DNA of 64,000 bases from assembly GCF_947492365.1 (NCBI RefSeq), contig NZ_CANLMB010000001.1, positions 1,476,874 to 1,540,873 of the forward strand. The letters are read 5' to 3'. Positions within the stretch are counted from its first letter, which is position 1. Each line of letters starts with the position of its first letter. This document shows positions 3,331-27,307 of this stretch, one piece after another. Source of the stretch: an uncultured Erythrobacter sp. GTDB lineage: Bacteria > Pseudomonadota > Alphaproteobacteria > Sphingomonadales > Sphingomonadaceae. The notes below the pieces were generated by a model that searched no databases, was not told where the DNA came from, and saw only the letters and a program-made list of their open reading frames with translations. The translations under genes were made by a program, and so were the position numbers.

Positions 3331-4494
3331 CTAGCCCGTTCTAAGGGCTCCCGCTTCACGCACGTCGGCCAAGGTCGGATAACCGTTCACCGCCATTAGC
3401 AAGTCGGCCTCTGCGAGGATTGAGCGCAGTACCCACGCTGCCCCCTCCGCCGCGCCGATCGCGAGGCCGTAGGTGTAAGGCCGCCCTACTCCGACCGCTG
3501 TCGCGCCCAGCGCAAGCGCCTTCACTGCGTCGCTTCCCGAACGAATGCCGCTGTCGAAAAGAACCGGCGTATCGTCAGCCGCCGCAACTACGTCAGGCAG
3601 CAGATCGATCGTCGCGATCCCGCCATTGGCCTGACGCCCTCCATGGTTGGAGCAGTAGATCGCATCGGCTCCGTGATCGATCGCCTTGCGCACGTCTTCC
3701 GGGTGGCAAATGCCCTTGAGCACAATCGGAAGGTCAGTGACCGACTTGAACCAGGCCACGTCCTCCCATGTCAGAACTTGCCCGAAAATCGCAGCGAACA
3801 GCATGATCGCCGCCTTGGGATCCTCTTCCGGCGGCTTTTCGAGCAACGAGCGAAAGACTGGATCGGTGAAATAGTTCTGCATCACCTTGCCGCGCAGTTG
3901 CGGGAAGTTTGATGCGTTGAGATCGCGCGGACGCCAGCCTGTCAGCCAGGTGTCGAGAGTGACCACAATCGCCTTTGCACCGGAGGCCTCGGCGCGCTTG
4001 ATCAAGCTCGTCGTAAGCTCGCTATTGCGCGGGGTGTAGAGCTGGAAAAAGGCGGGCGTGTCGCCTGTCTCCTTGAACACATCCTCAAGCGGATCGTTGC
4101 CGAGTGTCGAAACACAAAAGGGCACGCCCGTCATCGCCGAAGCGCGCGCGGCTGCCATATCGCCGTGGCGATCCTGCGTTGCCTCACCATTCACCCCGAC
4201 CGGCGCCATGAAGAGCGGCGTGGGTAAGTCCATGCCGAACAGATTGATCGACAGATCGCGCTCGGTGCAATCGACCATCATGCGGGGGACCATACCCCAA
4301 TGGTGGAATGCCGATGCGTTGGTGTCCTGTGTGTGCTCGTCTCCGCAGCCGCCCGCGACATAATTGGTCATCATCGGCCCGAGCGCCTCATGCGCGCGGC
4401 GCTCCAGCGTGGCGAAATCAACCGGGTAATCGGGCAGGATACCCTGTGTTCCGGCATTGTAGATCTCGTTCTGCATTCCGCCGAAATTGTGCAT
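3331..4494 (-). CDS. FMN-dependent alpha-hydroxy acid dehydrogenase/oxidase family, lactate 2-monooxygenase-like
   Basis: 387 aa with a TIM-barrel FMN enzyme signature: active-site motif YCSNHGGRQ and C-terminal DSGIRSGSDAVKALALGA. Confidence 0.8.
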   Translation of the reverse strand: MHNFGGMQNEIYNAGTQGILPDYPVDFATLERRAHEALGPMMTNYVAGGCGDEHTQDTNASAFHHWGMVPRMMVDCTERDLSINLFGMDLPTPLFMAPVGVNGEATQDRHGDMAAARASAMTGVPFCVSTLGNDPLEDVFKETGDTPAFFQLYTPRNSELTTSLIKRAEASGAKAIVVTLDTWLTGWRPRDLNASNFPQLRGKVMQNYFTDPVFRSLLEKPPEEDPKAAIMLFAAIFGQVLTWEDVAWFKSVTDLPIVLKGICHPEDVRKAIDHGADAIYCSNHGGRQANGGIATIDLLPDVVAAADDTPVLFDSGIRSGSDAVKALALGATAVGVGRPYTYGLAIGAAEGAAWVLRSILAEADLLMAVNGYPTLADVREAGALRTG

Positions 4495-4587
4495 GGCTGG
4501 CTGTCCTCTTACCCCGATTGTGCTTGCCGGTTATGAGAGCCGATAGTGCAGCCGCCAGCAAGCCCCTTTTCGCTAACGGGCAATTAT

Positions 4588-4625
4588 GAAAAGGGCCGGA
4601 GACCGCTTTAGGCGGCTCCAGCCCT
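4588..4625 (-). terminator. GC-rich hairpin with flanking T-runs, a candidate intrinsic terminator closing the TPS-CHAT-CHASE2 operon
   Basis: GGGCCGGAGACCGC (4593-4606) pairs with GCGGCTCCAGCCC (4612-4624), with one mismatch and one bulge. On the minus strand it is followed by TTTT (4589-4592) and on the plus strand by TTT. It sits about 30 nt after the stop at 4654. Confidence 0.5.
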
Positions 4626-4653
4626 TTCAAGTCACCGAGTGGAGACAAATTGC

Positions 4654-5403
4654 CTATTCGGCAGACGCTTCAAGAGTATCGGCCAGCAGCGCGAGTTGCG
4701 TCGTGCATCCGTTATCGATCAGTGCCTGCGCCAACGCATCGGGGGCCGCGTATTCTTCGTCCATTGTCACAAAGGTGACGTTGACCGAAGCCGCTTCACT
4801 GTCTTCGCCTGCAGGCGCGGTGATGGTGTAGTTTCCGCCATCCGTGATCGGCAGCCCATTGGGATCAAGCGCGCGCACGGCTTCGCTTTCGACAAAGGAC
4901 ACTTCGAGCGAACCTTGCGATGCGGCATCGCGGATCTGGTAGGTTTGCGCTTCGGTTGCCTCGGGACGCCACAGGCGCACGCTGCCAAGATCGTAAAGAC
5001 AGACATTGCCAGCCGCAGCGACATTCACAAACCACAGGTTCGGGCTGCGTGCCGGTGCGCCGGTCGCGCCGCTGCGCACCGCACCCGTGCGGACCCGCCG
5101 AGCGGCCCGTTGGCGCGTAAGGTTAGAGAAGCGCGCGCGGGTGCGGGTTGCCCCTTCGCCTACGCGGAAAGTGCCCGGCCCCTGCATCACGCGGGTGCCG
5201 TCATCGGTCAATACAGTGATCTTGTCGCCTGCGCGCAACGTGATCGAGGCTTCGTCGGCAACCTGACGGCCGACGGGATATTCACCCGCAGACGGTCCGG
5301 AAGATTTCACCACCACACCCGCGCTCGCAGCGCCGGGTACGGCCAAGACAGCGCCAACAAGCGCCAGACCCAAAAAACGGGCTTTCAATTTATCCGAGAA
5401 CAT
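4654..5403 (-). CDS. Secreted hypothetical protein with weak FecR-like N-terminal region
   Basis: Start chosen at the ATG at 5403, with GGGGGAG about 5 nt upstream and 10 nt after the cyclase stop. It has a signal peptide (KARFLGLALVGAVLAVPGAASA). The segment ITLRAGDKITVLTDDGTRVMQGPGTFRV resembles the FecR core. I do not recognise the C-terminal half. Confidence 0.6.
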   Translation of the reverse strand: MFSDKLKARFLGLALVGAVLAVPGAASAGVVVKSSGPSAGEYPVGRQVADEASITLRAGDKITVLTDDGTRVMQGPGTFRVGEGATRTRARFSNLTRQRAARRVRTGAVRSGATGAPARSPNLWFVNVAAAGNVCLYDLGSVRLWRPEATEAQTYQIRDAASQGSLEVSFVESEAVRALDPNGLPITDGGNYTITAPAGEDSEAASVNVTFVTMDEEYAAPDALAQALIDNGCTTQLALLADTLEASAE

Positions 5404-7489
5404 AAGCTCCCCCATCATTCAATTTCCGAATACGTTCGCCATAGTTACGTAGCGCGTCGTCATCCGGATGCATAGCAACCACCTCATCGATTAATTGTAC
5501 TGCTACGTCATGCTTGCTGTCGCTAAGCTGAGCGGCTTCAATTAATTTTTCGCGATGTTCGGGCGGGAAATCAGGCATGGGTTGATAGATATCAACGGGT
5601 TGCGCCCGTCCGCGCAGCACAATCCGGCCCATCGGCACCCACCAATCCGGATTGGATTTTTCAATAAATTCACGGCTAGCCGAAACCGACGACTGAAGGG
5701 GTTTGTTGGCTGCCTCAAGGCGCGCGGCGGTGTTCATGGAATCGCCCAGCGCAGTATACTGGATGCGCGAATCCCCGCCAAAGTTGCCGACAACCGCTTC
5801 GCCAAAGTGCAAACCCACCCGCGTCTTGCCGATCTTGGGCAGGTTCGGGTCCATCGCGGCGACCTCTTCGCGGAAATCCTCGCCAGCCTTCCACATTGCG
5901 TAGCCGGCCTTGGCCGCACGCTCGGCATCGTCAGCGCGCGCGATCGGTGCCCCCCAGAAGGCAACCACAGCGTCGCCGACATATTTGTCGATGACGCCGC
6001 CATGGTCGAGCACAACCTGACTGAGCAGCTCAAGATAGCGGTTGAGCAGCTTTGCGACCATTTCCGGTTCGATCGCATGGCTCATCTTGGTGAAGCCTTC
6101 GAGATCGCTGAACAGCACATAGATCTCGCGCTTTTCTCCGCCGAGCGAGAGCAATTCAGGCTCGTCGATGATCTGTTTGGCGATATCGGCCGGAATATAT
6201 TTGCCCAGCGCCCCTTGCGCGAAACTGCGCTGCGCTGAGCCTGCCGAGCGCGCTGCGGAAGTCACTGCGGTAAAGGCGACAATCCATGCGAGCAGCCAGC
6301 CAACCGCAGGCAGGCCGTAAGTGTCGATATCCTGGAAATGGAGCACGAAGGGAATGCCCACAAACAAAGCGGCGAGACCAAACAGCAGCGGCACCAGCTT
6401 AGGCGCAGGCCATTCCAACAGCGCGGTCAGCGCCGCGGTTGCTACCACAAGAAAGGCCATCGCCCACAGCGCCCAAGTCGGCACTTGCGGCAACACTTTG
6501 CCATCGAGCATTTGTGCAATGATCTCACCGTGCACCGAAAGCCCGGCTGGCTCAAAACCGGTCCATGATGTGAATGAGGTTTCGACACGGTCGTAATCGA
6601 CAATGTCGCCGCCGATCAGGACATACTTGCCCTCGATCTCTTGCGCGACGAACTCGGCAACGGCGGGGTCGAGATCGGTGAAGAGCTCGATGGAAAGCGA
6701 CTGGAACAGAGGCTCTTCGATATCGGCCTGTCCGCCTTCGCCCGCGCCTTCTTCTTCATCAAGTCCCGCGCGCAGTGCCCGGCGGTACTCGATCCCGCCA
6801 AGATAGCCTTCGAAGGCTTCGTAGGGCCCGCCTGCATCCTGCAACATCGCCCGCCCAAGCAATGGCGGCAGGTCTGGTTCGATCGTCGGCCAGATGCGCG
6901 TTGCGCCAAATGTGTTGTCGAGCCGGATGCTGGCAGGTCGCGAATTGGAGCCCTCAAGCGCGGCCATGAACTCCTCGAGGAAGATTTGTTGCTCGTAAAC
7001 AATATCGCTCGAATTGGTGGCAACGTTGGCATAGCCGACCAGCGTCGGCGTCTGCATATTACGCAAAGCTTCGATCAGCAGTTCGTCTTCAGCTTGGGGC
7101 TGGTCGAACAGAATATCGATCCCGATGGCCTTAGCGCCCATCTGGTCGAGATTGGTCAGCGCTTCGGCCAGCGCGTCGCGCGGCAACGGGGATCGCTGTT
7201 CGAGGTTGATGAGCGCCTGATCGTCATAGACGACCAGAATGATCCGGTCGTCCTGTTCGACCAGATCAGCCGCAAGGAAAGCGCGGGTGTCGTAAAGCGC
7301 TCTTTCGGCGGCATTGGTCAACGGAGTGGGTTCTTCGCCGCCGGGCAAGGTCCAGCTGAAACGGGCGAGAAACACTGCCACCAGCAGCAACAGACAGGTC
7401 GCGACCAGTTGCAGCGTACCGGCCTCGCGGACGCTTCGCCACCCGCGCGCAATCAGGCCGCCGCGCCGCTTCTTTCCTTCGTCTGTCAT
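5390..7489 (-). CDS. CHASE2 sensor domain-containing class III adenylate/guanylate cyclase
   Basis: Start at the ATG at 7489, preceded by GGAGGGG. An N-terminal TM segment is followed by a periplasmic CHASE2-like region (ILVVYDDQALINLEQRSPLPRDALAEALTNLDQMGAKAIGIDILFDQP). A cluster of TM helices follows. The cyclase homology domain then carries the metal-binding Asp motifs (VLFSDLEGFT and IDKYVGDAVVAFWGAP) and MNTAARLE. Confidence 0.9.
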   Translation of the reverse strand: MTDEGKKRRGGLIARGWRSVREAGTLQLVATCLLLLVAVFLARFSWTLPGGEEPTPLTNAAERALYDTRAFLAADLVEQDDRIILVVYDDQALINLEQRSPLPRDALAEALTNLDQMGAKAIGIDILFDQPQAEDELLIEALRNMQTPTLVGYANVATNSSDIVYEQQIFLEEFMAALEGSNSRPASIRLDNTFGATRIWPTIEPDLPPLLGRAMLQDAGGPYEAFEGYLGGIEYRRALRAGLDEEEGAGEGGQADIEEPLFQSLSIELFTDLDPAVAEFVAQEIEGKYVLIGGDIVDYDRVETSFTSWTGFEPAGLSVHGEIIAQMLDGKVLPQVPTWALWAMAFLVVATAALTALLEWPAPKLVPLLFGLAALFVGIPFVLHFQDIDTYGLPAVGWLLAWIVAFTAVTSAARSAGSAQRSFAQGALGKYIPADIAKQIIDEPELLSLGGEKREIYVLFSDLEGFTKMSHAIEPEMVAKLLNRYLELLSQVVLDHGGVIDKYVGDAVVAFWGAPIARADDAERAAKAGYAMWKAGEDFREEVAAMDPNLPKIGKTRVGLHFGEAVVGNFGGDSRIQYTALGDSMNTAARLEAANKPLQSSVSASREFIEKSNPDWWVPMGRIVLRGRAQPVDIYQPMPDFPPEHREKLIEAAQLSDSKHDVAVQLIDEVVAMHPDDDALRNYGERIRKLNDGGAYVLG

Positions 7490-7631
7490 TGCCCCTCCAA
7501 TGCCCCCATGGCCCAGCCATAGCACCGCGCAACCTACAAAGCGGTTTTGCACTGGCTACGCAAGTCACAGGGCCTGCGAAATCCCCTAGGGGCAGTTGCC
7601 TAGATCAGCTGCGCGAGCGGTCCGGGAATTG

Positions 7632-10600
7632 CTACCGCACGACTTTCGTCGAGCCATCACCAACCACGGCAAAGGCCGACCAGTAGAAGGGATGCGAAGT
7701 CTCCCGATCATCCATCAGAGCGACTTGCGAGAGGCGCAGCGCATCAGCTGTTGCGACATCAGACCCTTCGAACAGCCCGCCGATCAGGCGCGTGGTCGCG
7801 TTATAGTCGTCAGGAACCGGCCAATGGCTGGCAAGCACCGTGCGCCCCCCTGCCCCGACAAAGGCGCGAACCAGACCGTCCAGCGCGAACTCGCCGCGCG
7901 AGACGATGCCTGCCTCCAACGCCGCACCGACAGTCGCGCTGCCTGCCGTATCGCAGGCGGAAAGGATCACGAGATCGGCATCGATCCGCAGCGCGAAGAT
8001 CTCGGCAAAACTAAGCAGTCCATCCGAACCGTCATCGCCGAACGAGGTCAGCAGAGCCGGACGCGGCGGGCATTCGGGCTGAGGCGCGGTAACAAGGCCG
8101 TGCGTAGCGAAGTGAAGGATGCGGTACTCACCCAAATCCTCGCGGGCCTTGATAGCGGTGTCAGTGAAACCGTCCTTTGTGAGGACCGTCGCTCCGCCGC
8201 TTTGCCCTCCGCCAAGCCGTGAGGCGGCGTCGAAAAGCTCGTCCGATTTGATCGGGTTGGACCAGATATTCTCCGACCACAGGCAGTTCTCGCCGCCTGC
8301 AAGCGCCGAACGCGTGCCGGTCGAGCCAACCGGCCCATCTCCAATCGGCGTGTTCTCGCCCAGTCCAAGATAGGCCTTGTCAGCCGCGCTGGGCGGCGCG
8401 GCGCGGACGTCGCGGAAAGCCGTCGGTGCGACCGAGGTGGTGATCTGCGAATTGCGACCGAGCCACTGGACCCCGCGGAAATCGTAGTCATCGCCATCAG
8501 GCCCTTCGAGCCGCGCCTGATATTGCGCGACACTCGCATCGTCGGTCACCAACAGGTTGATTGGCAGCTTGAGCAGCGCACCATCAGGTTCGAAAACGAT
8601 ATGGGTGCGTCCCGGCAGGCGGTCCGCAATGGGTCCGAACAGACGCAGATAGAGATCGCGTGAGGCTTCGAGGTCGAACGGGAAGGTGACGACCTGCGCG
8701 CCCTCTGCAATCGCAATGCTTTCCCTGATGCCGAGAACGATATCCTCTAGCTCGTCAGGGGTCGCATCGACCCTGTAGGCCAGTGCCTCTTCGGGCGTAA
8801 TGTAGATCATGAAGGCTTCGCTATCGAGCTCCACCATCTTCACATAGGCTTCACCCGGACGCAGGATTGACTGCATGCCTGCCAGATCAATCGCCCCGCC
8901 CGATACCGCGCGGAACCGCGGATATTCGGCGAGTTTCTGAAGCACTTCGGCTTGCTGATCCTGCAAGGAAACGAGCCGCGACTGCCGCTCTGTCAGAATG
9001 GCGGCGGCTTGCGGATTGAGCTGCGCGTCACCTTCGATCTGGATGATCTGGGCGCGGGTTCGTTCAATCGAACGTCCCAGATTGACGCTCTGGCGGAACA
9101 ACGCGGATGCTTCATCGCTGCCACCTGACAATTCGCGCGCAAGCACTGCCTGGGTTTGCGCAAGGCCGGGGCGCAGCAGCAGCTGGCTGGCGGAGAATAT
9201 GTCGTCGGCGGCCTCCGTGCTTGCCCCATCGGCGAGCAGCAGGCTGAAATAGCTCGCCATATAGTTGCGCAGTGAAGGAGCTGGTCGCCCTTCGGCCTCG
9301 GCAACGATCTCGCGGTAAAGGCCGATTGCCTCGCCCTCGCGTCCGGTGCGCGCATAGAGCCCTGCAAGCTGTGCCTGCGCGCTATAAAGCGCGGGCGATT
9401 CCGGATAAGCGCTGTCGAGCAATGCGATGCCTTGCTTGTGCAGTGCCTCCGCACGGCCTGCATCGCCTGCCCCTTCGGACAGTTCGGCAAGCTCGCTTAG
9501 CACCTGCGCGCGCAGCCAGAGGATCGAGATGATCCTTCCGCTGCGCACTTCGGACAAAGTCGTATTGGCGCGCGAAAGACTGCTCGCTGCAAGCTCCACG
9601 TCGCCGAGCTGGCGCTGACTGGTCGCGCGCAGATAATCCGCTTGCCCGTCGAGCAATTGCGCACGCTCAATCGGTGTTAGGCTCATCGCAATGACGCCGC
9701 GTGTCGCATTGTCGCTTTCTGCCGCGAGGCGCCGCGCCATGGCAGGGCCGATCTGAAGGCTGCGAAGCGCCGTAGTGTCACCGAAATCGGTGCGGAGCGG
9801 TGCGTTCAGGATATCGATAGCGAGCGAAGGCTGGCCCTGATTGAGCGCATCGATGGCTTCGTAATTGCGCTGCAGCCGTGCGAGGACGGGGCTTGTCCCA
9901 GCTCCCCCGCTCGTCTGTTCGAAACGGCGGCGTGCCTCGGCGAAATTGCCCAGGTTGGACTGGAGCAACCCTTCGTTGAGCCGCGCTTCGATCTCGCTCG
10001 TGCCGGTCAGCGATTCTGCCGATGCGGCGAAGAATTCCGCTGCCTCAGCGAACTCGCCCGCATTGGCCCGGCGATAGGCCTCGTTCAAGGCCTGATCGGC
10101 GGTAATCGATTCGGCCTGTTGCCGTGCAAAGGCGAGGGTATCGGTGGTTTGGGTCAGCGGGATGTCGACCGTGCCCGGCACCAGCCGGTCATTTGCTAGC
10201 GAGGCTACCCCGAGGCTGAGGGCGCTGCGATAGGCTGACAGCCCGCTCGCTGCGAAGGTGCGGTTGCCGCGCTCTCCAACTAGCAATTCGGTGCGGATAA
10301 TACTGCCCTCGCGTGAGCAGATCAGGCGCTTGGCGCCTTCCAGCCCGCTTGGCATGTCAGCACCCGCTTGTTCGGAGCATGAGGCACCTGGGCCAGCAAA
10401 GCGAGCAGCCGCTTCGTCGGCGACACGCCCGCGCACAACCCACATCGTGCCAATAGGCGCGCCGGCATCGCGGCAGAGCAGATTGTATTTGCGGTCAAAC
10501 AGACCCGATCCGCGTTCGGGGGCCTGAATCTGCGCCTCGCACAGCCCGTTCGATCCGATGGGAAATGTGTCACGCAGGCTGACCGGATTTTGCGAAGCCA

Positions 10601-10694
10601 CCTGAGCGGTGTTGGGACTGGCCCAAAATGCCGCCGTTCCAACAGCTGCCAGCGCGCCGAGTGTAAGCAGAGATTTTCTGATTGTCTGGGTCAT
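7632..10694 (-). CDS. Signal-peptide-bearing TPR-repeat protein with C-terminal CHAT (caspase-fold) protease domain
   Basis: Start at the ATG at 10694 (MTQTIRKSLLTLGALAAVGTAAFWASP), 1 nt after the TpsA stop. The N-terminal domain contains four Cys. A long helical/TPR-like middle follows. The C-terminal CHAT motifs are ILHFATHG (His codon 8100-8102), LVILSACDTAG (Cys codon 7953-7955) and HPFYWSAFAVVGDG. Confidence 0.9.
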   Translation of the reverse strand: MTQTIRKSLLTLGALAAVGTAAFWASPNTAQVASQNPVSLRDTFPIGSNGLCEAQIQAPERGSGLFDRKYNLLCRDAGAPIGTMWVVRGRVADEAAARFAGPGASCSEQAGADMPSGLEGAKRLICSREGSIIRTELLVGERGNRTFAASGLSAYRSALSLGVASLANDRLVPGTVDIPLTQTTDTLAFARQQAESITADQALNEAYRRANAGEFAEAAEFFAASAESLTGTSEIEARLNEGLLQSNLGNFAEARRRFEQTSGGAGTSPVLARLQRNYEAIDALNQGQPSLAIDILNAPLRTDFGDTTALRSLQIGPAMARRLAAESDNATRGVIAMSLTPIERAQLLDGQADYLRATSQRQLGDVELAASSLSRANTTLSEVRSGRIISILWLRAQVLSELAELSEGAGDAGRAEALHKQGIALLDSAYPESPALYSAQAQLAGLYARTGREGEAIGLYREIVAEAEGRPAPSLRNYMASYFSLLLADGASTEAADDIFSASQLLLRPGLAQTQAVLARELSGGSDEASALFRQSVNLGRSIERTRAQIIQIEGDAQLNPQAAAILTERQSRLVSLQDQQAEVLQKLAEYPRFRAVSGGAIDLAGMQSILRPGEAYVKMVELDSEAFMIYITPEEALAYRVDATPDELEDIVLGIRESIAIAEGAQVVTFPFDLEASRDLYLRLFGPIADRLPGRTHIVFEPDGALLKLPINLLVTDDASVAQYQARLEGPDGDDYDFRGVQWLGRNSQITTSVAPTAFRDVRAAPPSAADKAYLGLGENTPIGDGPVGSTGTRSALAGGENCLWSENIWSNPIKSDELFDAASRLGGGQSGGATVLTKDGFTDTAIKAREDLGEYRILHFATHGLVTAPQPECPPRPALLTSFGDDGSDGLLSFAEIFALRIDADLVILSACDTAGSATVGAALEAGIVSRGEFALDGLVRAFVGAGGRTVLASHWPVPDDYNATTRLIGGLFEGSDVATADALRLSQVALMDDRETSHPFYWSAFAVVGDGSTKVVR

Positions 10695-10695
10695 C

Positions 10696-18891: not shown

Positions 18892-18892
18892 C

Positions 18893-20839
18893 TTAATATC
18901 TCCAAGGGAAAAGTCGGGCGGTCAAAGAGACCATGAAGCGCACATCACCGCGCGATTGCGCCAAGTCAGGGCGTTCGAGCGGGACGGCGACAAAAGCGTC
19001 ACCTTGCAGGCGTGACCCCCAGACGGCGCGCAGTCCGCCACCGGCAGACCAGAGCCTGTCCGGATTGAGCGGCTGGCGGCTGGGGTCTTCGTTCCATGCC
19101 CAGGCCATGTCGGTGAAGACATAGGGCTGCACCGCAAGGTCATCGGCAGCATTGGGAGCCAGCGATCCGTAGCGCAGTTCTAGCGCGGTGCTTACACCGC
19201 TATCGCCCAGAACTGCGCCGGGATCGTAACCGCGACCAATCGAAAAACTGCCAGCAGCAAATTCCTCATAAGCTGGCAAAGGATCGCCGCTGATCTGGCC
19301 GCTTGATGACAGTACAAAGGTGATTTTCGGAACGGGGCGATATTCTATCCCCGCATCATAGCGCAGCAAGAGCGGCGTCGGATCAGCCTCGATCCGGCTG
19401 GTCTGGTTGCCATCGAAAAAGCATTGCGCTGCATTGACGCGGCAATCGGGGCTGGCTGAAAGGACGTCAAAGCCCTGCCGCACTTCGAGAGCATAACGCG
19501 CGCGGAACTTCGGCTCGAACGGAGTGTATCCGCCAATGCGCTGGACGCTTTGCTGGTCGGTCATCTCGCCCGAGAAGCGCGCAAACAGTGTGCGCACTCG
19601 GTCGCGCGAGATCATCACATCGTTGATCTCGACATCCTGATTGACGACATCAAAGCCGACATCGAGAAACTTGCTCGAGCGGCGCGTGCGTTGCAGCGGG
19701 TAGGACGCGAAGCCAGTGAAGACAGTGGTTTCGGATTCAAGATCGAACCCCGCAACACCCAGCTGCGGGTTCGTCTCACTATAGGTGAACTGGCCGCCCA
19801 GCCGCAGCCCTTCCCCGCCAACGGCAAAGTCATGCCCGATCTGGAGCGTGCGTTGCTCGCTGAATTCAAGCGTACTGAAAAGCGCAACCGAAGTGCGGTC
19901 GCCTAGCCCCGTGACATCGTAAATTTCACCGCGCAGCAACCCGCCGAAACGGCCAATCGCTTTCGACCCGAAATTCTGGACATTGAGGTCGATCACCCCG
20001 CGCTTGCGCACCACCGCGATTTCGCCGAGCAGGTCGCCCGGCTCTCCGCCAGCCGCCGGTCGCAGCGACAGGCGCACATTGACGCCCGGCAGATCATCGG
20101 CGAGCAGCAGGTAGCGTTCGGCATCGCGGGTGTTGAACACGGGCTGCTCGGTCAGTTTTTCCAGATAGGCCGCAACCAGCCCCTCTGACGGCCCGGCTTC
20201 GCCGCGAACTCGCAAGCCCGTTAGCCGCCCGAAAACGACGCCAAAATCGGCAACGCCATCGCTCAGATTTTGCTCGGGGATTTCAACCGTGGCCAGATAA
20301 CCTTGTCCGCGCAGGATCGAATTGGCCCGCGCGCGGATGTCGCACAAAACCGCCAAAGGCACTTCGCGCCCAAGATAGCCGTCATATGCAGCTGCGAGCG
20401 AAAGCCCCGGCACCCGTTCCAGCCCGGCAAACTCGACGCCGCTCAGCGTCAGGCTGATCTCGGAATATTCGGCCCGGTCAAGCACGCATGGCGCGCGCTC
20501 CATATCGCCGTCGATCGTCAATGTGACGCTGCGATCCTCGCGGCGCTCCATTTCAGGCGGTGTGAGCTGGGTCCGTGGCGGCGGGGTGACCTGCGGAGCA
20601 GCCTGAGCGAAAGCCGCCCCTGTCGGCACAACCGCGGAGGCACCCAACACAAGGGCGCCCGCAGCAAATGCTGATCGTGCAACACTAGCACCGCGACGTC
20701 CGTGCTCAACACGGCGCAACTTAATAGAATTTGTAGACAAGCCTGCCCCCCAATTTCGTCTTGCAACCGCTCTTGCGCTTACAAGTCCCTGCCCGACCCG
20801 GAGAGATTCTCGAAAAAGGTGCAGCGTGGATTTTTCCAC
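18893..20839 (-). CDS. ShlB/FhaC/HecB-type outer-membrane TpsB transporter (POTRA domains plus beta-barrel)
   Basis: Signal peptide ...AAGALVLGASAVVPTGAAFAQA, then a POTRA-like region and a long beta-barrel ending in aromatic residues (RLFPWRY). The stop is 1 nt before the TpsA ATG. The start is uncertain: GTG at 20839 or TTG at 20719. The TTG would give a normal-length signal peptide. Confidence 0.85.
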   Translation of the reverse strand: MEKSTLHLFRESLRVGQGLVSARAVARRNWGAGLSTNSIKLRRVEHGRRGASVARSAFAAGALVLGASAVVPTGAAFAQAAPQVTPPPRTQLTPPEMERREDRSVTLTIDGDMERAPCVLDRAEYSEISLTLSGVEFAGLERVPGLSLAAAYDGYLGREVPLAVLCDIRARANSILRGQGYLATVEIPEQNLSDGVADFGVVFGRLTGLRVRGEAGPSEGLVAAYLEKLTEQPVFNTRDAERYLLLADDLPGVNVRLSLRPAAGGEPGDLLGEIAVVRKRGVIDLNVQNFGSKAIGRFGGLLRGEIYDVTGLGDRTSVALFSTLEFSEQRTLQIGHDFAVGGEGLRLGGQFTYSETNPQLGVAGFDLESETTVFTGFASYPLQRTRRSSKFLDVGFDVVNQDVEINDVMISRDRVRTLFARFSGEMTDQQSVQRIGGYTPFEPKFRARYALEVRQGFDVLSASPDCRVNAAQCFFDGNQTSRIEADPTPLLLRYDAGIEYRPVPKITFVLSSSGQISGDPLPAYEEFAAGSFSIGRGYDPGAVLGDSGVSTALELRYGSLAPNAADDLAVQPYVFTDMAWAWNEDPSRQPLNPDRLWSAGGGLRAVWGSRLQGDAFVAVPLERPDLAQSRGDVRFMVSLTARLFPWRY

Positions 20840-20941
20840 TTTGTGCCCTTGATCGGGCGACCCAATTTACGTTGAGCTCTGGAATACTCCGATCAGGAGT
20901 GAAAACAAGTGCGGGCATGGAAAATGACGGCCTGAACGCGT

Positions 20942-20964
20942 AACTTGTCGCGTTTCCACAAGTT
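20942..20964. promoter_or_regulatory. 7-bp inverted repeat AACTTGT-N9-ACAAGTT in the tpsB/STAS divergent control region
   Basis: Direct reading. The same ACAAGT hexamer also occurs at 20781-20786 and 20905-20910. Confidence 0.3.
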
Positions 20965-21200
20965 TTGGCGCGCAAGGCCCTCCGGAGAAGGTGCCCGTTA
21001 ACTCCATGCTAACGCTGTTCATGGGTTCGACTAGGGAAAAATTCATATTCTCCTGCTTGGCTCAAATTCAGGTCGCCGAAAACGCAGGAGTTAGCGTGCA
21101 GCACATCGCAGAAATCTCGCCAGTGCTTGGCGTGTTGGACCGGGTTCGCCCCCCAGCCTTCATATTTGGCAATCGCGATAAGTCGCGCTATGCCAAGCGA

Positions 21201-21545
21201 ATGTCGGGAAGTGCATTGAACTGGACTAGCGAGAATCGCGCCGGAGCTACTGTGCTTTGCCCGAGCGGCCGAGTTGATGAATCGACCGCAGATGCGTTCA
21301 AGGAAAACTTGCTCGACGCGATGGCAGCAAAGCCGGAAACGGCGATTATCGATCTTGATGGCGTCGAATATATGTCTTCACGCGGGCTGCGCGCGCTCAC
21401 CCTTGCGCAGCGCGCCGGGCAAGAGGCGGGGACCACGATTGTCCTAGCCCGCCCGAACGATACAATGCGCGAAATACTTGCAATCAGCCGTTATGATATG
21501 GTCTTTCGTGTTGCCGATACGATAGAGGATGCGATCGGGCATTAG
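21201..21545 (+). CDS. STAS-domain protein (anti-sigma-factor antagonist-like, SpoIIAA/RsbV type)
   Basis: Start taken at the ATG at 21201 (114 aa, a typical STAS size). It carries the motif IDLDGVEYMSSRGLRAL, which retains the conserved phosphorylatable Ser context. Confidence 0.8.
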   Translation: MSGSALNWTSENRAGATVLCPSGRVDESTADAFKENLLDAMAAKPETAIIDLDGVEYMSSRGLRALTLAQRAGQEAGTTIVLARPNDTMREILAISRYDMVFRVADTIEDAIGH

Positions 21546-21563
21546 TTTGCATTAGGGGGGAAT

Positions 21564-22529
21564 ATGCAGGTCCGGTTTTGGGGAACGCGCGGCTCGCTGC
21601 CGGTTGCGCCGCACGCCTCGACAATCACCGACAAGGTTGCAGACGCCCTGCTTCATGCCAATGGGAAGAGCTTTGCCGATAAGCAGGCAGCGCTAGATTT
21701 CGCGCGCGACGAGCTCGATTTTGCGGTTGGGCAAGGATATGGCGGCGCGACGAGCTGTGTCGAGATCGATGCGGGCAAAGGCGCTTTCGTTGTTTGCGAC
21801 ATGGGTTCGGGCCTGCGCGAATTCGGCCTCGATACGCTGCGGCGGCTGTCCGAAGGCTTGCGCCCCAAGGAATGGCACTTCTTCCTCTCGCACCTGCATT
21901 GGGACCACATCATGGGTTTCCCTTTCTTCGTGCCAGCTTTTGTTGATGGGGCGAAGGTGATCATCCATGCTGGACATAGCGACGCCGAAGAGGCTCTGCG
22001 CCGCCAGCAGGAAGAGATCAGCTTTCCGGTGCCGTTCCATTGGCTCAAGGCAGATATCGAGTTTCGCACTCTGGAAACGGGGCGTGACTACGAGATCGGC
22101 GAGCTGACCGTGGCCTTGATCGAGCAGGAGCATAGCCACAAAAGTTACGGCTATCGGTTCCGCGATGCCAAAGGGCGCACTGCAATCTATTCAACTGACG
22201 CCGAATACAAGATCGACAAGATGGACGAAGAGACCGCGATGATCGACTTCATTGCGGGTGCTGATCTGGTCATTGCCGACACGATGTATTCGCTCGCCGA
22301 TAGCGTTTCGATGAAGGAAGACTGGGGCCACTCGTCGAACATTGTCGCGGTTGATCTGTGTCACGAGGCTGGCGCGAAACGGCTGGCGCTGTTCCATCAC
22401 GAGCCGACCTATAGCGATGCCGATATCCAGCGGATGCACGGCGAAACGATCCGCTATGAAGAGCTGACCCGCAGCGCTGCCGCGCTCGAGGTGCTGTGCT
22501 CCTATGACGGGCTCTGTGTCGAAGTCTGA
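21564..22529 (+). CDS. MBL-fold metallo-hydrolase
   Basis: 321 aa with the HxHxDH motif in FLSHLHWDHIMGFPFF, plus later His/Asp ligand contexts (QEHSHKS, ADTMY, FHHEP). Substrate cannot be assigned from sequence. Confidence 0.8.
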   Translation: MQVRFWGTRGSLPVAPHASTITDKVADALLHANGKSFADKQAALDFARDELDFAVGQGYGGATSCVEIDAGKGAFVVCDMGSGLREFGLDTLRRLSEGLRPKEWHFFLSHLHWDHIMGFPFFVPAFVDGAKVIIHAGHSDAEEALRRQQEEISFPVPFHWLKADIEFRTLETGRDYEIGELTVALIEQEHSHKSYGYRFRDAKGRTAIYSTDAEYKIDKMDEETAMIDFIAGADLVIADTMYSLADSVSMKEDWGHSSNIVAVDLCHEAGAKRLALFHHEPTYSDADIQRMHGETIRYEELTRSAAALEVLCSYDGLCVEV

Positions 22530-22557
22530 GGACATCGCACAGGAGGCAGGCACGCGG

Positions 22558-24582
22558 ATGAAGCTTGTCCGCGCGGTTATCCTCGGCGGCATCGTCGGTG
22601 TGATGCTGGCATTTCTGCTCGGCACACAAAGCAGCCGCGCGGTGTTTGACAGCTGGCAGCGGCTTTCCCCGCGCGAAATTTCAACCGAGAATGTCGCTGT
22701 CATCCTGATCGATGATGACAGCGTGGTCGGGGTTGATGGGGCCGAAGGCAAGGTCGGCTGGCCGTGGCCGCGCAAGCTGGTCGCGCAACTGGTCGAGAAA
22801 ATCGGTGAGGCTGACCCGGCGCTGATCGGCATCGACATCTATTTTCCCGAACGCGACCCACTGCGCCCCGAAGCCTTTGCCAGCCTATACGCTGATGACG
22901 ATCTGGACGCAGCGAGCCGCGCCGCCATTCTCGATATGCGCGACTGGGATTACGAGCTTGCGCGGGTAATCGGCGAAACTCCCAGCGTTATGGCGCGCGC
23001 GGGGGTCGAATACGGGCTGAGCGATCAGCGCGACTATTTCTTCGAATCCCAGGTCCAGGGTGAAGCGCCCGCTGGCACATTGGCGCTCGACAATATCGTA
23101 GCCACATTGTTCGAACTTGAAGGTGCGGCGCTGTCACAGGCGATGGTCGATGGCGCGCCCGATGACGATGCGATTGTCCGGCGGGTCCCACTGAGCGTGC
23201 GCGTGGGCGACAAGCATCCGCCCGGCTTCGCGCTCGAACTCGCCCGGCTCGGCCTCGGCGTCGAGGAGTTGCGCTGGGAGGGGCAAAGCCTGTTCATGGA
23301 CCGGATCGAAATTCCTGCCGATGCGAATGGCACGATGCGATTCAAGATGGGAGAATTCCCCGCTGCCGCCGATCATTCCGCCGCCGATATCCTGTCCGGC
23401 AGGATCGGAGCCGAGGAATTGCAGGGAAAAATCGTCATTCTCGGTGTTGGCGCGACGGGCACCTATGACATTGTCGGCACCCCTTTGAATGAAGCAGTCT
23501 TTGGCGCATTCGTGCAGGCGCAGGCTGTCGACGCCATTATCGAAGGCGAATGGCTTGCCCGTCCTGCATGGGCAATCGGTTTCGAACTAGTCGCAGGTCT
23601 TTTGCTGTTCGCAATCGTTCTGATCGCGGCGATGACACAGCGCGCAAGGTTGCTGGCCCCGGCCATCGGCATCGCGCTCTTGCTTCCCCTAGTCTCCTGG
23701 GCGGCATTCGATCAGGCTAATCTGCTGCTCGATCCCTCACGCGCGCTCATCATCTGGGCATGTGCAGCCATAGGCCTGTGGATCATGCGTTTCCTCATCA
23801 CGCGCGAAGAGCTGGTGCAGGAGCACTTGCTGGTAACGCTGCATGAAGAGGAGATGGAGTTCGCGCGCCGCATACAGATGAGCATGGTTCCGGGCGAAAC
23901 CACTCTCGCCCGGCTCGATCAACGCGCCGAAATCGCCGGCGTGCTCGAACCGGCCAAGACTGTCGGCGGCGACTTTTTCGATGCGCTCAAGATCGGTGAC
24001 GACAAGCTGCTGTTTCTGGTTGGTGATGTGTCGGGCAAAGGCATGGCAGCGGCGCTCTATATGGCGCTTTCCAAGACTGCGGCGAAGAGCAATCTGGCGC
24101 GTGCAAGCGACGGGTTGCAGAATGCAGTGGCTGCGCTCAATCAGGATTTGATGGACGAAGCCGACCCCGAAATGGGTCTCACCATGCTGGTCGGCATTCT
24201 CGATTGCAGCACCGGCGATCTTGAACTGGTCAATGCAGGCCACGAAAACCCGCTGATTGTCCGCGCAGACCAGTCAGTCGAAACATTCGGGATGATCGGC
24301 GGACCGCCCTTTTGCGTGATCGACTTCAACTATCCGGTCGAGCACGACAAGCTCGAGCCCGGCGACACTCTGGTTATCATCACCGACGGCGCGACCGAGG
24401 CGGCCAATGTAGATGACAAGCTGTTCGGCGTTGAAGGGGTTGTCGGCGCGCTAAAAGCAGCAAACGACCGATCAGCCAAAGGCCGCGCGCAGCATCTGGC
24501 AAAGCAGGTTCGCGTGTTTGAAGGGCCAACCGACCCGAGCGACGATCTGACGATCTTCGCGCTCAGGTTCCTCGGCAGCTAG
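22558..24582 (+). CDS. CHASE2 sensor domain-containing PP2C/SpoIIE-family serine phosphatase
   Basis: Start at the ATG at 22558, downstream of AGGAGG. An N-terminal TM segment is followed by a CHASE2 core (VAVILIDDDSVVGVDGAEGKVGWPWPRKLVAQLVEKIGEADPALIGIDIYFPERDP) and TM helices. The SpoIIE motifs follow: GGDFFD, LVGDVSGKGMAAALYM, LVNAGHENP, ITDGATEA and DDLTIFALRF. Confidence 0.85.
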   Translation: MKLVRAVILGGIVGVMLAFLLGTQSSRAVFDSWQRLSPREISTENVAVILIDDDSVVGVDGAEGKVGWPWPRKLVAQLVEKIGEADPALIGIDIYFPERDPLRPEAFASLYADDDLDAASRAAILDMRDWDYELARVIGETPSVMARAGVEYGLSDQRDYFFESQVQGEAPAGTLALDNIVATLFELEGAALSQAMVDGAPDDDAIVRRVPLSVRVGDKHPPGFALELARLGLGVEELRWEGQSLFMDRIEIPADANGTMRFKMGEFPAAADHSAADILSGRIGAEELQGKIVILGVGATGTYDIVGTPLNEAVFGAFVQAQAVDAIIEGEWLARPAWAIGFELVAGLLLFAIVLIAAMTQRARLLAPAIGIALLLPLVSWAAFDQANLLLDPSRALIIWACAAIGLWIMRFLITREELVQEHLLVTLHEEEMEFARRIQMSMVPGETTLARLDQRAEIAGVLEPAKTVGGDFFDALKIGDDKLLFLVGDVSGKGMAAALYMALSKTAAKSNLARASDGLQNAVAALNQDLMDEADPEMGLTMLVGILDCSTGDLELVNAGHENPLIVRADQSVETFGMIGGPPFCVIDFNYPVEHDKLEPGDTLVIITDGATEAANVDDKLFGVEGVVGALKAANDRSAKGRAQHLAKQVRVFEGPTDPSDDLTIFALRFLGS

Positions 24583-24590
24583 CCCCCAGC

Positions 24591-25394
24591 CTAGCGGACA
24601 GTGACCGTCACAATCCGGTAGGCGTCATTGTCTTCGCGCACTCCGCCAGATGCTCTGAGCGCCGCAAAGTCACCGGCTCCGACCACTTCTATATCTTCGG
24701 CAGAAATCGGCAGATCGTCCCCCAGTTCGGCGAGCAATTGGTAATAGACCGAGGTCGCCCGGCGATAAGACAATTGCTGATTGCGGACCGAGTTTTCCGG
24801 ATCATCGTCAGTGAGATCGGTATAGCCCGCCGAATCCGCAAAGCCGGTGATCTCGATATGCAGTTCGGGCTTTTCCTGCTGGCTGGCGTAGCGATCGTTG
24901 AAGCGGATCAGATAGGCCTGCAAAAAGGCGCGAAGCTCGGCGAGAACAGCAGGCGAAAGCTCGCGTGCGCCAGTTTCAAACTCGAACCGGTCGATCGCCA
25001 CTTCGAGCGGGAGGTCCGCAAGCAGGCCCGCGCGGTCCGGTGTTTCATCGAGCGCGCGGACACGTGGACCCCTTTCACGCAGGGTCGCTTGCTCGTTCTG
25101 ACTGGTCAGAATTGCAGTCGAACTTACCGCAGTTTCGTCGCTGTAGCGTTCTTCGTAGTCTTCTTGCGAAAGCGCCGCGGCATCATCGTCAATTACAGCT
25201 ACGGCGCCCAGATCACAAACAGGCGTTTGCTCGCCTGTTTCAGCGTCAATGACGGGCACAATCTCACCCGAAGCCAGACCTTCACAGATAGCAAGCTTTT
25301 CCGCCTGGATCGGGTTCAGCAGCGTCACGCGGTCTCCCGCGGCACAGCCGGCCAATACTAGCGCGCCCCCCAGCGCCAGAGTTGTTCTGATCAT
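24591..25394 (-). CDS. Lipoprotein with C-terminal OmpA/MotB-like peptidoglycan-binding domain
   Basis: Lipobox LVLAGC. The C-terminus reads ITGFADSAGYTDLTDDDPENSVRNQQLSYRRATSVYYQL, which is OmpA_C-like. Its ATG overlaps the stop of the upstream FecR gene (ATGA at 25391-25394). Confidence 0.7.
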   Translation of the reverse strand: MIRTTLALGGALVLAGCAAGDRVTLLNPIQAEKLAICEGLASGEIVPVIDAETGEQTPVCDLGAVAVIDDDAAALSQEDYEERYSDETAVSSTAILTSQNEQATLRERGPRVRALDETPDRAGLLADLPLEVAIDRFEFETGARELSPAVLAELRAFLQAYLIRFNDRYASQQEKPELHIEITGFADSAGYTDLTDDDPENSVRNQQLSYRRATSVYYQLLAELGDDLPISAEDIEVVGAGDFAALRASGGVREDNDAYRIVTVTVR

Positions 25395-25837
25395 CCGACT
25401 TCAACCACAAAGGTCGTGCCGCGAACGCCCAGCGTCGATGTAGGCGTGCGCACGCGCATCCGGTCGCGCCCGGTCCGAGTGATGTTACCGGAATCAATGC
25501 CAACCGTTCCGCGCCGGATAAAGGTGGTTGAACGGCCCGTCTGGCGCGCCCTGTCATAGCGATATTCGTCGAGCGTGACTTCGCTATTGGGTCCGATCGC
25601 CATGCGGGTGTTGTCGATAAAGGTGATCCCGACCCGGCCTGCACGGCGGGTGACGATTACGTCATCCTCGACCAGTCGCATGCCCGATACGGCGCGATAT
25701 GTGCGGCCATCGCGCGTTACCTCGACCCCGGAAGTCACATTCTTGACCCGGCCAATTTCTTCGCCTGCCGATTGCGCAGCAGCAGGTTGCACGACTAAGG
25801 CGGCAATCGCTGCGATAAGAAAGCTTACTTTTCTCAT
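25391..25837 (-). CDS. Secreted FecR-domain protein
   Basis: Signal peptide MRKVSFLIAAIAALVVQPAAAQ. FecR core: GRVKNVTSGVEVTRDGRTYRAVSGMRLVEDDVIVTRRAGRVGITFIDNTRMAIGPNSEVTLDEY. A GGGGGAG Shine-Dalgarno sequence lies upstream. Confidence 0.8.
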   Translation of the reverse strand: MRKVSFLIAAIAALVVQPAAAQSAGEEIGRVKNVTSGVEVTRDGRTYRAVSGMRLVEDDVIVTRRAGRVGITFIDNTRMAIGPNSEVTLDEYRYDRARQTGRSTTFIRRGTVGIDSGNITRTGRDRMRVRTPTSTLGVRGTTFVVEVG

Positions 25838-25874
25838 ATGTTCTCCCCCAAGGAGTTTGTGTTAGCATATACTT

Positions 25875-26288
25875 ATGGATCGACGGAGACGATTTTCGGC
25901 ATTTGTTGCCAGCGGGCGCGATCCGCGTTCCACGATCCTTCAAGCATTGCAGTTCGCGCGAGAATTTCTGCCCGAAAGCTGCCTTGACGAGCGCGCCCGA
26001 GTCAAGGCTGCAATCATCATAGAAGAGCTAGTATCCAATTCTTTACGTTATGGCGGGCAGGCGAATGACCTGTCCTTGTGGCTCTCGCTCGATGATACGG
26101 GTGACGCGGTGGTGCTCGAACTCGAAGATGATGGCGCGCCGTTTGATCCCACTTGCGAGGATAGTTTCGCCGGTCCGAATCCGGAAACGGGCGGCGGCAT
26201 AGGCCTCGCTATCGTGCGAGCATGGGGAGAAGATCTGACCTATGCCCGCCGGTCGGATCGCAACTGCCTGCAATTGACTATTCGCTGA
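25875..26288 (+). CDS. HATPase_c-type anti-sigma-factor-like serine kinase (RsbW/SpoIIAB type)
   Basis: 137 aa. N-box EELVSNSLRYG, G1-like LEDDGAPFD and G2-like GGGIGLAIV. The size and motifs fit partner-switching kinases. Confidence 0.75.
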   Translation: MDRRRRFSAFVASGRDPRSTILQALQFAREFLPESCLDERARVKAAIIIEELVSNSLRYGGQANDLSLWLSLDDTGDAVVLELEDDGAPFDPTCEDSFAGPNPETGGGIGLAIVRAWGEDLTYARRSDRNCLQLTIR

Positions 26289-27228: not shown

Positions 27229-27307
27229 CGGTTAATCAACAGGCAGGTTGATTGCAATTGCCTTTCGGCATTTGCCATGCCATTTCTTCGGCTTTGGAGG
27301 GATTGCT

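Follow-up and report, generated by a model that had tools for sequence, protein, structure and literature searches.

Several described systems each resemble a part of the locus analysed here. Since the widespread sensor domain CHASE2 was described, no ligand of it has become known. In Sinorhizobium meliloti, the outer-membrane protein NsrA is needed for signalling through the CHASE2 cyclase CyaK, the output being cyclic AMP (cAMP) acting via Clr; nsrA lies directly upstream of cyaK, and NsrA carries FecR and TPR domains. The Clr target SMc02177, which has a FecR domain, was studied jointly with periplasmic SMc02178 as part of the CyaD1/D2/K-Clr pathway of this bacterium. CHASE2 is also present in the Burkholderia BiofilmReg operon, which encodes a response regulator, a LysM/FecR protein, a CHASE2 histidine kinase and a DUF4136 protein, and in Trichodesmium a metacaspase is fused to CHASE2. 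Here we describe positions 4588-26288 of a 64,000-nucleotide stretch (hereafter the window) of contig NZ_CANLMB010000001.1 from an uncultured Erythrobacter sp., in which two CHASE2 proteins are encoded at a locus that also carries genes for two-partner secretion (TPS), a caspase-fold protein and a partner switch. The 11 open reading frames (ORFs) of this region were tested with Pfam and NCBIfam profile searches. All 11 were found at the coordinates given in the initial annotation, which had been made from the letters of the sequence alone, and its domain calls held for ten of them; the exception is the 249-aa product of 4654-5403 (hereafter P254), which had been called FecR-like and is not.

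Based on the present data, the 11 genes probably represent two independently conserved modules, each built around a CHASE2 sensor with dedicated exported partners, that are placed back-to-back in one lineage of the Erythrobacteraceae. Module A comprises tpsB, tpsA, chat, cyc and p254, all on the minus strand, while Module B comprises genes for a STAS protein, a metallo-beta-lactamase (MBL)-fold hydrolase, a CHASE2-PP2C phosphatase, an OmpA-like lipoprotein, a FecR-domain protein and an RsbW-like kinase. In the initial annotation all genes had been combined into one system. Our neighbourhood counts point elsewhere: of the 28 Module B loci whose upstream flank spans 8 kb or more, 22 are devoid of any Module A gene or CHAT gene, and no Module B gene is seen near Module A in E. 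litoralis, in the Erythrobacter metagenome-assembled genome (MAG) L006, in Sphingobium and in 8 others. Adjacency of the two modules is confined to an Erythrobacter-like clade, that is, to loci with a PP2C at least 44% identical to that of the window. The view of the locus as one trans-envelope system is thus partly supported only.

These counts derive from two surveys, whose loci are designated by L numbers. For Module A, one genome per GTDB species was searched with an alignment of the TPR-CHAT subfamily as the anchor, which gave 80 loci that were annotated with iterated hidden Markov models (HMMs) and to which annotated replicons and one contig were added; core counts refer to the 31 species loci with a full-length TPR-CHAT gene. 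For Module B, a metagenome scan was anchored on CHASE2-PP2C, and partner counts refer to the 39 loci with sufficient flank, whereas recurrent neighbours were sought in 36 long loci. The CHAT HMM of this analysis also matches TPR arrays. L128 holds the sole confirmed TPR-CHAT gene near Module B, and L139 probably carries one as well. The CHAT candidates adjoining CHASE2-PP2C in L160 and L163 turned out to be TPR-GT41 proteins, false positives of the HMM, and an apparent second CHAT gene in the window (55100-57157) encodes a TPR-sulfotransferase.

Module A was found in at least 18 loci, belonging to Sphingomonadales, Caulobacterales, Rhodospirillales and one Burkholderiaceae MAG. Its five genes occur in three different orders. 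The order tpsB-tpsA-chat-cyc-p254 is that of the window, of E. litoralis (L003) and of L006, L017 and L018. The order chat-cyc-p254-tpsB-tpsA is seen in Sphingobium herbicidovorans (L001), in Parasphingopyxis (L012), in Croceicoccus (L015) and in L020, L035 and the cut locus L008. The third order, tpsA-chat-p254-cyc-tpsB, is complete in Sphingomonas L044, and loci of this type that are cut by a contig end or in which tpsA or tpsB was not detected are present in the Burkholderiaceae MAG (L036), in Phenylobacterium (L040), in L037 and L042, and in Niveispirillum (L169). Because the five genes stay contiguous in three gene orders across several orders of Proteobacteria, comparative genomics provides strong evidence that they are functionally linked. 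The earlier suggestion that the TPS genes, the CHAT gene, the CHASE2 cyclase gene and the gene for a small secreted protein belong together is therefore supported by the survey. In the same way, the survey showed that Module A is not private to one strain; what did not extend beyond the Erythrobacter-like clade is its juxtaposition with Module B. Three genomes additionally encode proteins that bind cyclic nucleotides (cNMP) beside Module A, namely a Crp/Fnr protein (L001), an MscS-cNMP protein (L037) and a kinase-cNMP protein (L042).

The frequencies of the five genes allowed us to distinguish a core from an accessory part. Among the 31 species loci, 18 have ShlB and TPS genes next to TPR-CHAT, 2 have ShlB together with a giant Gly-rich ORF, and in 4 a giant ORF is cut by the end of the contig. 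CHAT proteins from other phyla have only the CHAT domain in common with this subfamily, and such neighbours are absent there. Based on these counts and on this absence, the core of Module A consists of TPS and TPR-CHAT, in at least 24 of the 31 loci. The cyclase and P254 genes, which are present as a pair in 8 of the 31, form an accessory pair that is also found on its own.

It is well established that TpsB proteins export TpsA proteins. In the FhaB/FhaC system of Bordetella (with SphB1, DegP and CtpA) and the CdrA/CdrB system of Pseudomonas, the exported TpsA is a giant protein whose C-terminal region, together with a dedicated protease, controls maturation or release. Module A resembles these systems in having a TpsB, a giant beta-helical TpsA with a conserved C-terminal region, and a protease gene whose role here is predicted. 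It differs from them in that its TPS domain is divergent (31 bits) and in that the protease is a caspase-fold TPR-CHAT protein, not a subtilisin, DegP or LapG.

The transporter gene tpsB (18893-20839, minus strand) encodes an Omp85-family protein with matches to Pfam ShlB (56.7 bits) and POTRA_2 (32.7 bits). Its true start probably lies downstream of the GTG at 20839, since a signal-peptide-like segment is located at aa 53-79 of the maximal ORF, the orthologues are shorter (552-617 aa), and conserved non-coding blocks cover 20790-20900. The neighbouring tpsA gene (10696-18891, minus strand), co-oriented with tpsB and separated by 1 nt from it and by 1 nt from chat, encodes a Gly-rich exoprotein of 2,731 aa. 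The full-length protein has no match in Pfam. A signal peptide is visible at its N terminus, for which a sequence search of the PDB found no relative, and the first 300 aa match the Pfam TPS domain with an E-value of 2.3e-7 and 31.4 bits, below the cut-off of 33.5 bits. The giant ORFs at the tpsA position in more distant relatives (including L037, L044 and L169) match this domain with 56-109 bits, and the counterpart in S. parapaucimobilis was named 'filamentous hemagglutinin N-terminal domain-containing protein' by PGAP. On the strength of these positional counterparts and of the sub-threshold match, the Erythrobacter protein is most probably a TpsA with a divergent TPS domain, in agreement with the original call of a TPS exoprotein.

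The C terminus of TpsA (10696-11100 in the window) carries a family-specific signature. It starts with the motif N-x-C-x(5-9)-C, which is present in 18 of 23 TpsA proteins encoded next to CHAT, and continues with a Pro/acid-rich linker and a short acidic/aromatic end motif, for example DDPVSSGGDSSLY or DEPVTGAGNEDLW. The signature is kept across orders, from Erythrobacter to Caulobacterales and Parvibaculum, and recalls the conserved C-terminal prodomain of FhaB.

The third gene of the core, chat (7632-10694, minus strand), encodes a predicted protease with TPR repeats and a caspase-fold CHAT domain (Pfam CHAT, E = 9e-47, 160 bits), preceded by an N-terminal domain with four Cys residues. Its N terminus resembles a signal peptide, in keeping with the original description as a signal-peptide TPR-CHAT protein. 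The sequence is 100% identical to that of an NCBI protein entry from an uncultured Erythrobacter sp. In an alignment of 61 sequences with 25-55% identity, the His865/Cys914 dyad is invariant, and so are C52, C74, C106 and C126. The architecture, a TPR array followed by CHAT with a His/Cys dyad, is like that of Csx29 of type III-E CRISPR (Craspase) and of HetF-type proteins; unlike these, the present protein is exported, has the four invariant Cys residues and is linked to TPS genes rather than to CRISPR. A sequence search of the PDB gave no relative of the CHAT protein, and a search with the TPR-CHAT profile matched TPR proteins only, kinesin light chains being the best, while the CHAT part remained unmatched. 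The TPRs of kinesin light chains bind short acidic/aromatic peptides, which for TPR-CHAT is a lead and not evidence.

The accessory pair is separated from chat by 143 nt, as opposed to the tight coupling within tpsB/tpsA/chat and within cyc/p254. The cyc gene (5390-7489, minus strand) encodes a class III nucleotidyl cyclase with matches to Pfam CHASE2 (87 bits) and Guanylate_cyc (58 bits). Its hydrophobic segments (22-52, 332-351, 361-387 and 391-414) indicate one transmembrane (TM) segment, a periplasmic CHASE2 domain, three further TM segments and a cytoplasmic cyclase domain. The catalytic motifs FSDLEGFT, DKYVGDAV and NTAAR are intact and supply the class III residues, with D462 in the first motif, K502 and D506 in the second and N596 and R600 in the third, which correspond to the metal-binding Asp pair, the substrate-binding Lys and the transition-state Asn/Arg. 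There is a Thr at the Asp position, from which we presume that the protein is a class IIIb adenylate cyclase. No relative of the CHASE2 domain of this locus was found by a sequence search of the PDB.

The start of p254 (4654-5403, minus strand) overlaps the stop of cyc. The gene product, a protein of 249/254 aa with a signal peptide, was modelled by AlphaFold2 (AF2) as a two-domain beta protein with a predicted local distance difference test (pLDDT) score of 82.9. Two Cys residues are invariant in the family, and the counterpart in Sphingobium is 38% identical. P254 has no match in Pfam or NCBIfam, none of 120 homologues carries a Pfam domain, and a profile search of the PDB with P254 gave nothing. 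None of four tests supports FecR homology: besides the absence of profile matches in P254 and of Pfam domains in its homologues, an hhalign comparison with a profile of 54 FecR sequences gave a probability of 0.2%, and Foldseek with the AF2 model returned only generic Ig/fn3 sandwiches (TM-score below 0.3). As judged from sequence comparison and modelling, P254 is a member of an undescribed family and not a FecR protein. This leaves one FecR-type protein at the locus (25391-25837) where two had been proposed.

The gene neighbourhoods nevertheless suggest that P254 holds the position that FecR proteins occupy elsewhere, since, of the 25 CHASE2 cyclases in the survey, 22 are accompanied by P254 and two of the remaining three by a FecR-domain protein. 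Conversely, 22 of 26 genes of the P254 family abut a CHASE2 cyclase gene on the same strand, and the remaining 4 of the 26 come after CHAT and a GT4 glycosyltransferase gene that replaces the cyclase (L022:4666-6891, L024, L046:12957-15285 and L041). One further arrangement was observed in the Erythrobacter MAG L006, where a second CHASE2 cyclase gene and the gene for a 329-aa FecR-domain protein directly follow p254 (16153-19419), so that two CHASE2 cyclases with different partner types are located side by side.

The leftward array of the window is closed by a terminator-like structure at approximately 4589-4628 (minus strand), a G+C-rich hairpin followed by UUUU. The 101-nt stretch 4560-4660 has a minimum free energy of -44.8 kcal/mol (z = -4.32), and 0 of 200 shuffled sequences were as stable. 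The hairpin noted in the initial annotation is thus real by folding (z = -4.3, with the G+C-rich stem and UUUU), though it was not called by a stricter consensus terminator scan. Scanning three intergenic regions for consensus promoters and terminators yielded nothing, and a search of the whole 64-kb window against Rfam at the gathering threshold gave no match.

Compared with the pathways of S. meliloti (NsrA-CyaK and CyaD1/SMc02177/SMc02178), Module A shares the combination of a CHASE2 class III cyclase with an adjoining, dedicated exported partner; the output in S. meliloti is cAMP that is read by a Crp-type regulator. However, the cyclase of the window is flanked by CHAT and P254, and neither of these nor TpsB matches the NsrA or FecR profiles, while the S. 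meliloti pathway includes neither a TPS fibre nor a CHAT protease. No P254 homologue was found in the chromosomal S. meliloti CHASE2-cyclase locus L173 (E<0.1) or in the nsrA-cyaK locus L002. We also considered whether the Clr-target TPR protein SMb20495 is a CHAT protein and rejected this, since the Sinorhizobium replicons, including pSymB, contain no CHAT match.

Module B begins with a STAS gene that diverges from tpsB (21201-21545, plus strand) and encodes a protein of the anti-anti-sigma type (Pfam STAS 56 bits, NCBIfam ant_ant_sig 64 bits) with the phosphorylatable Ser in the context MSSRG; orthologues of 114-166 aa support the start at 21201. It is followed by the MBL-fold hydrolase gene (21564-22529, plus strand; Pfam Lactamase_B_2 58 bits, HxHxDH motif) and by the gene for the membrane phosphatase (22504-24582, plus strand), which combines CHASE2 (148 bits) with a SpoIIE-type PP2C domain (135 bits). 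The phosphatase has a topology of one TM segment, a periplasmic domain and three TM segments, contains the motifs GGDFFD, GDVSGKG, TDG and DDLT, and weakly matches the NCBIfam SiaA model (E = 5e-8). Convergent to these genes are those for an OmpA-like lipoprotein with the lipobox LAGC (24591-25394, minus strand; Pfam OmpA 27.4 bits against a cut-off of 27.2) and for a small periplasmic FecR-domain protein of 148 aa (25391-25837, minus strand; Pfam FecR 42.3 bits, signal peptide). These two overlap by 4 nt, and orthologues of the former also match OmpA. The last gene (25875-26288, plus strand) encodes a serine kinase of the RsbW/SpoIIAB type (Pfam HATPase_c_2 46 bits, with N-box and G-box motifs).

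PP2C phosphatases, STAS proteins and RsbW kinases together form a phosphorylation switch, whereas class III cyclases make cNMP. The complete switch set of PP2C, STAS and GHKL kinase is present in the window with intact motifs, and all three co-occur in 29 of the 39 loci. These 29 loci contain all five partners, in the arrangement STAS-MBL-CHASE2-PP2C, convergent OmpA-FecR and then RsbW. Among the 36 long loci we found no further recurrent neighbour (in at least 8 loci) except one cluster in 10, and no conserved sigma factor, TonB receptor or other output gene. Module B is therefore a self-contained conserved unit of six genes, and the set of STAS, MBL, CHASE2-PP2C, OmpA, FecR and RsbW that had been noticed earlier is a second conserved unit, complete in 29 of 39 loci.

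Within this unit the MBL gene is the most conserved. The identity of its product to that of the window amounts to 83-89% within the clade and to 64-66% in distant loci, as opposed to 44-57% and 35-41% for the PP2C, which suggests that the enzyme evolves far slower than its signalling partners. Two NCBIfam models match it below threshold, RNase Z at 63 bits and a cyclic-nucleotide phosphodiesterase model, whose cut-off is 400, at 55 bits. The best profile match in the PDB is RNase Z and weak, and orthologues show faint matches to Apyc1. Resemblance to a cyclic-nucleotide phosphodiesterase is thus sub-threshold and no better than that to RNase Z. A structure model based on the single sequence had a pLDDT of 46.9, too low for use. 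A second MBL-fold gene (Lactamase_B_2 66 bits, weak Apyc1 match of 21 bits) is located in the window at 27248-28378 on the plus strand, 1 kb past rsbW and after an alpha/beta hydrolase gene, and in the close relative L086 a gene for a TIR_2 and TPR protein (13772-15742) directly follows rsbW.

Module B is most like the SiaABCD system of Pseudomonas aeruginosa, and more classically RsbU/V/W, in that a membrane PP2C, an RsbW-type kinase and a STAS switch protein are accompanied by a co-operonic enzyme. It is unlike SiaABCD in that the sensor is CHASE2 with FecR and an OmpA-like lipoprotein and in that an MBL hydrolase takes the place of the diguanylate cyclase. With Burkholderia BiofilmReg it shares a secreted FecR-domain protein and a peptidoglycan-binding domain encoded beside a CHASE2 sensor; in BiofilmReg, however, LysM is fused to FecR and the output is a two-component system, whereas in Module B the peptidoglycan-binding OmpA-like domain is on a separate lipoprotein. 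The FecA-FecR-FecI system offers the idea of a FecR-domain protein that relays an outer-membrane event across the periplasm, but the 148-aa FecR protein of Module B has no anti-sigma domain (DUF4880) or TM segment, and the module includes no extracytoplasmic function (ECF) sigma factor and no TonB-dependent transducer. A literature search with incomplete coverage returned no paper in which 'CHAT domain' appears together with CHASE2, FecR or hemagglutinin; nor did it return one that joins CHASE2 to a partner switch or to PP2C. The earlier statement that no system of this composition has been characterised must thus be qualified: no paper was found on the TPS-CHAT-CHASE2 cyclase combination or on the CHASE2 partner switch, but the pairing of FecR with CHASE2 is known from NsrA-CyaK, which has been characterised genetically, and from Burkholderia. 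While the FecR-CHASE2 link is already known, the two modules themselves are real and uncharacterised.

How the modules might work can be sketched from the functions of their families. In Module A, TpsB would export TpsA as a giant beta-helical fibre. The periplasmic TPR-CHAT protein would then most likely bind or cleave the conserved C terminus of TpsA, with maturation, release or turnover of the fibre as the result, by analogy with the processing of the FhaB prodomain and with CdrA/LapG. P254 would most likely relay the state of the fibre or the protease to the periplasmic CHASE2 domain and thereby change the synthesis of cNMP, probably cAMP, which may be read by Crp-type or other cNMP-binding proteins such as those encoded beside the cluster in some genomes. 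In the Lap system, LapD, an inner-membrane second-messenger protein, governs the periplasmic Cys protease LapG; the inner-membrane partner here differs in that it makes cNMP rather than binding c-di-GMP. In Module B, the periplasmic FecR protein and the OmpA-like lipoprotein may feed into CHASE2-PP2C, which would dephosphorylate STAS in opposition to the RsbW-like kinase. Since the surroundings hold no conserved sigma factor gene, and since the most conserved gene, that of the MBL, is internal to the operon, control of the MBL enzyme by STAS, as in SiaABCD, is the likeliest output. A bolder version is decidedly unlikely to be right as a whole: CHASE2 would be a receptor for periplasmic partner proteins and not for small molecules and would report on the condition of outer-membrane machines, Module A would sense surface contact or the integrity of the fibre, cleavage at the C-terminal motif of the TPS fibre by CHAT would be turned via P254 into a pulse of cAMP, and in the Erythrobacteraceae an MBL phosphodiesterase controlled by STAS binding would degrade this same messenger.

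The two modules meet at a divergent intergenic region between tpsB and STAS (20840-21200), which contains blocks that are conserved in the four loci compared; conserved non-coding blocks cover 20790-20900. The STAS-proximal motif TAGGGAAAAATTCA (21032-21045) has a core, AAAATTCA, that is invariant in 7 of 7 aligned loci, its TAGG part being less so in L085. These seven include 4 loci in which the cyclase gene, and not tpsB, faces STAS, and a weaker block on the other side is likewise common to both locus types. At 20826-20839 there is a palindrome, GTGGATTTTTCCAC, with an apparent compensatory change to GTGGG...CCCAC in L086. The conserved elements have no match in Rfam, and no sigma-70 consensus promoter was found in the divergent region.

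A number of observations weigh against a clean division into two modules with a fixed internal logic. All nine loci of the clade (PP2C at least 44% identical) have parts of Module A adjoining Module B. Loci with tpsB and loci with cyc facing STAS have sequence motifs in common, which would agree with a degree of co-regulation of the two modules in this lineage but amounts to no more than a hint at a shared divergent control region. Within Module A, the cyclase-P254 pair occurs without TPS or CHAT genes in L087, L088, L092, L097 and L148, and TPS-CHAT occurs without the pair in at least 10 species. Each half thus also exists without the other, and their coupling is facultative. Finally, it is by adjacency of the genes that TpsA is a candidate substrate of the CHAT protein.

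The first two of these observations touch upon the original proposal, by which all 11 genes form one trans-envelope system: FecR-type proteins would inform both CHASE2 sensors, from the outer membrane, of the condition of the fibre or envelope, and coordinated cNMP and partner-switch outputs would follow. We consider this rather improbable. The back-to-back layout is present in every Erythrobacter-like locus of the Module B survey, with the TPS genes between the modules in the window, L085, L086/L089 and L118, and with cyclase-P254 directly back-to-back with STAS, without tpsB, tpsA and chat, in E. longus (L087) and in L088, L092, L097 and L148. It persists while the right flank varies, and motifs of the divergent promoter region are shared. 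Moreover, the weak likeness of MBL to cyclic-nucleotide phosphodiesterase models could make Module B a degradative arm for the product of the cyclase, and the distant Burkholderiaceae locus L036 has STAS-RsbW-PP2C about 3 kb from its Module A cluster. However, the two modules go separate ways outside the clade, as the counts given above show from both sides. The left housekeeping flank (FMN_dh and Aldedh) shows the same degree of conservation as the adjacency of A and B, so that vertical synteny alone can explain the latter, and a single ancestral event could be the source of the juxtaposition. In addition, P254 is not FecR, and MBL matches RNase Z equally well and lies far below the phosphodiesterase cut-off. 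The cyclases of the loci without the TPS-CHAT trio are 84-87% identical to that of the window and hence as close as that of one locus with the trio (86%); the trio has thus been gained or lost recently within a back-to-back CHASE2 pair that was itself kept.

The facultative coupling inside Module A raises another possibility, namely that TPS and CHAT are simply an adhesin with its processing protease, next to which an unrelated sensor made up of CHASE2 cyclase and P254 often happens to lie. Besides the separate occurrence of the two halves (in at least 10 species and in 5 loci, respectively), the 143-nt gap between chat and cyc, set against the tight spacing on either side of it, would agree with this account. 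It is nonetheless unlikely, as the halves remain contiguous through three rearrangements in at least four orders, and the P254-like genes that follow CHAT where a GT4 glycosyltransferase replaces the cyclase connect P254 with both CHAT and the cyclase. Very improbable is a third account, in which Module A serves conflict, as a toxin system like contact-dependent inhibition (CDI), a type VI secretion system (T6SS) accessory or a Pycsar-like phage defence, with TpsA/CHAT as effector and the cyclase as alarm. CHAT proteases do act in some defence systems, tpsB-tpsA-chat is embedded in T6SS clusters in Sphingomonas, and the cyclase core scores 115 bits with the PADLOC PycC model. Yet this match is generic, because CyaK of S. 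meliloti, the cyclase of a cAMP/Clr-dependent pathway, scores 90 bits with the same model, and a Pycsar reading of the cyclase was rejected by this control. The locus has no match to a PycTM or PycTIR effector and contains no immunity gene or variable C-terminal toxin, the C terminus of TpsA being conserved and not polymorphic. Furthermore, CHAT, P254 and CHASE2 are all extracytoplasmic, and PADLOC gives no match for CHAT, P254, MBL, STAS or RsbW. The reading of two independently conserved modules accordingly remains the one that we prefer.

This reading bears on the ligand of CHASE2. The CHASE2 proteins of this locus and its relatives fall into three output types, and each type has an exported partner of its own: P254 accompanies the cyclase, FecR-domain proteins accompany other cyclases, and FecR with an OmpA-like lipoprotein accompanies the PP2C. 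Given this pattern, the idea of a protein partner as the ligand can be tested directly. The locus also defines a conserved TPS subfamily that is always accompanied by a periplasmic, caspase-like putative protease. This may be a new way of regulating how surface fibres are processed, and with the cyclase it could link the cell surface to cAMP in Alphaproteobacteria. The CHASE2 partner switch with its six genes, of which the MBL gene is the most conserved member, is a candidate for an enzymatic output that does not involve a sigma factor.

Several neighbouring gene clusters were observed in the course of the surveys. In six loci of differing gene order (L001:31089-40256, L003:17730-23057, L005, L006, L017 and L024), Module A is accompanied by a four-gene cytochrome cluster that encodes a Cytochrome_C554-like protein, an HbpS-like haem-binding protein, a protein of about 610 aa with no assigned family and a multihaem protein of more than 1,300 aa; this cluster was not found adjoining Module A in the window. 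In L020, a complete Module A has a FecR and OmpA pair like that of Module B (2965-4372) at a distance of 2.5 kb on its upstream side, and the 7 kb visible there contain no CHASE2-PP2C gene. The T6SS clusters that surround tpsB-tpsA-chat in Sphingomonas (L170:1-26232 and L026-L030), where the cyclase and P254 genes are missing, encode TssH/K/L/M, TagF, a PP2C, a Ser/Thr kinase and an M23 peptidase. On pSymB of S. meliloti, a DUF5706/PycTM-like gene (L002:2580-3125, minus strand; Pfam PycTM 44 bits, PADLOC PycTM 53.7 bits) is divergent from nsrA-cyaK, so that a membrane effector of the Pycsar type adjoins a CHASE2 adenylate cyclase that has been characterised.

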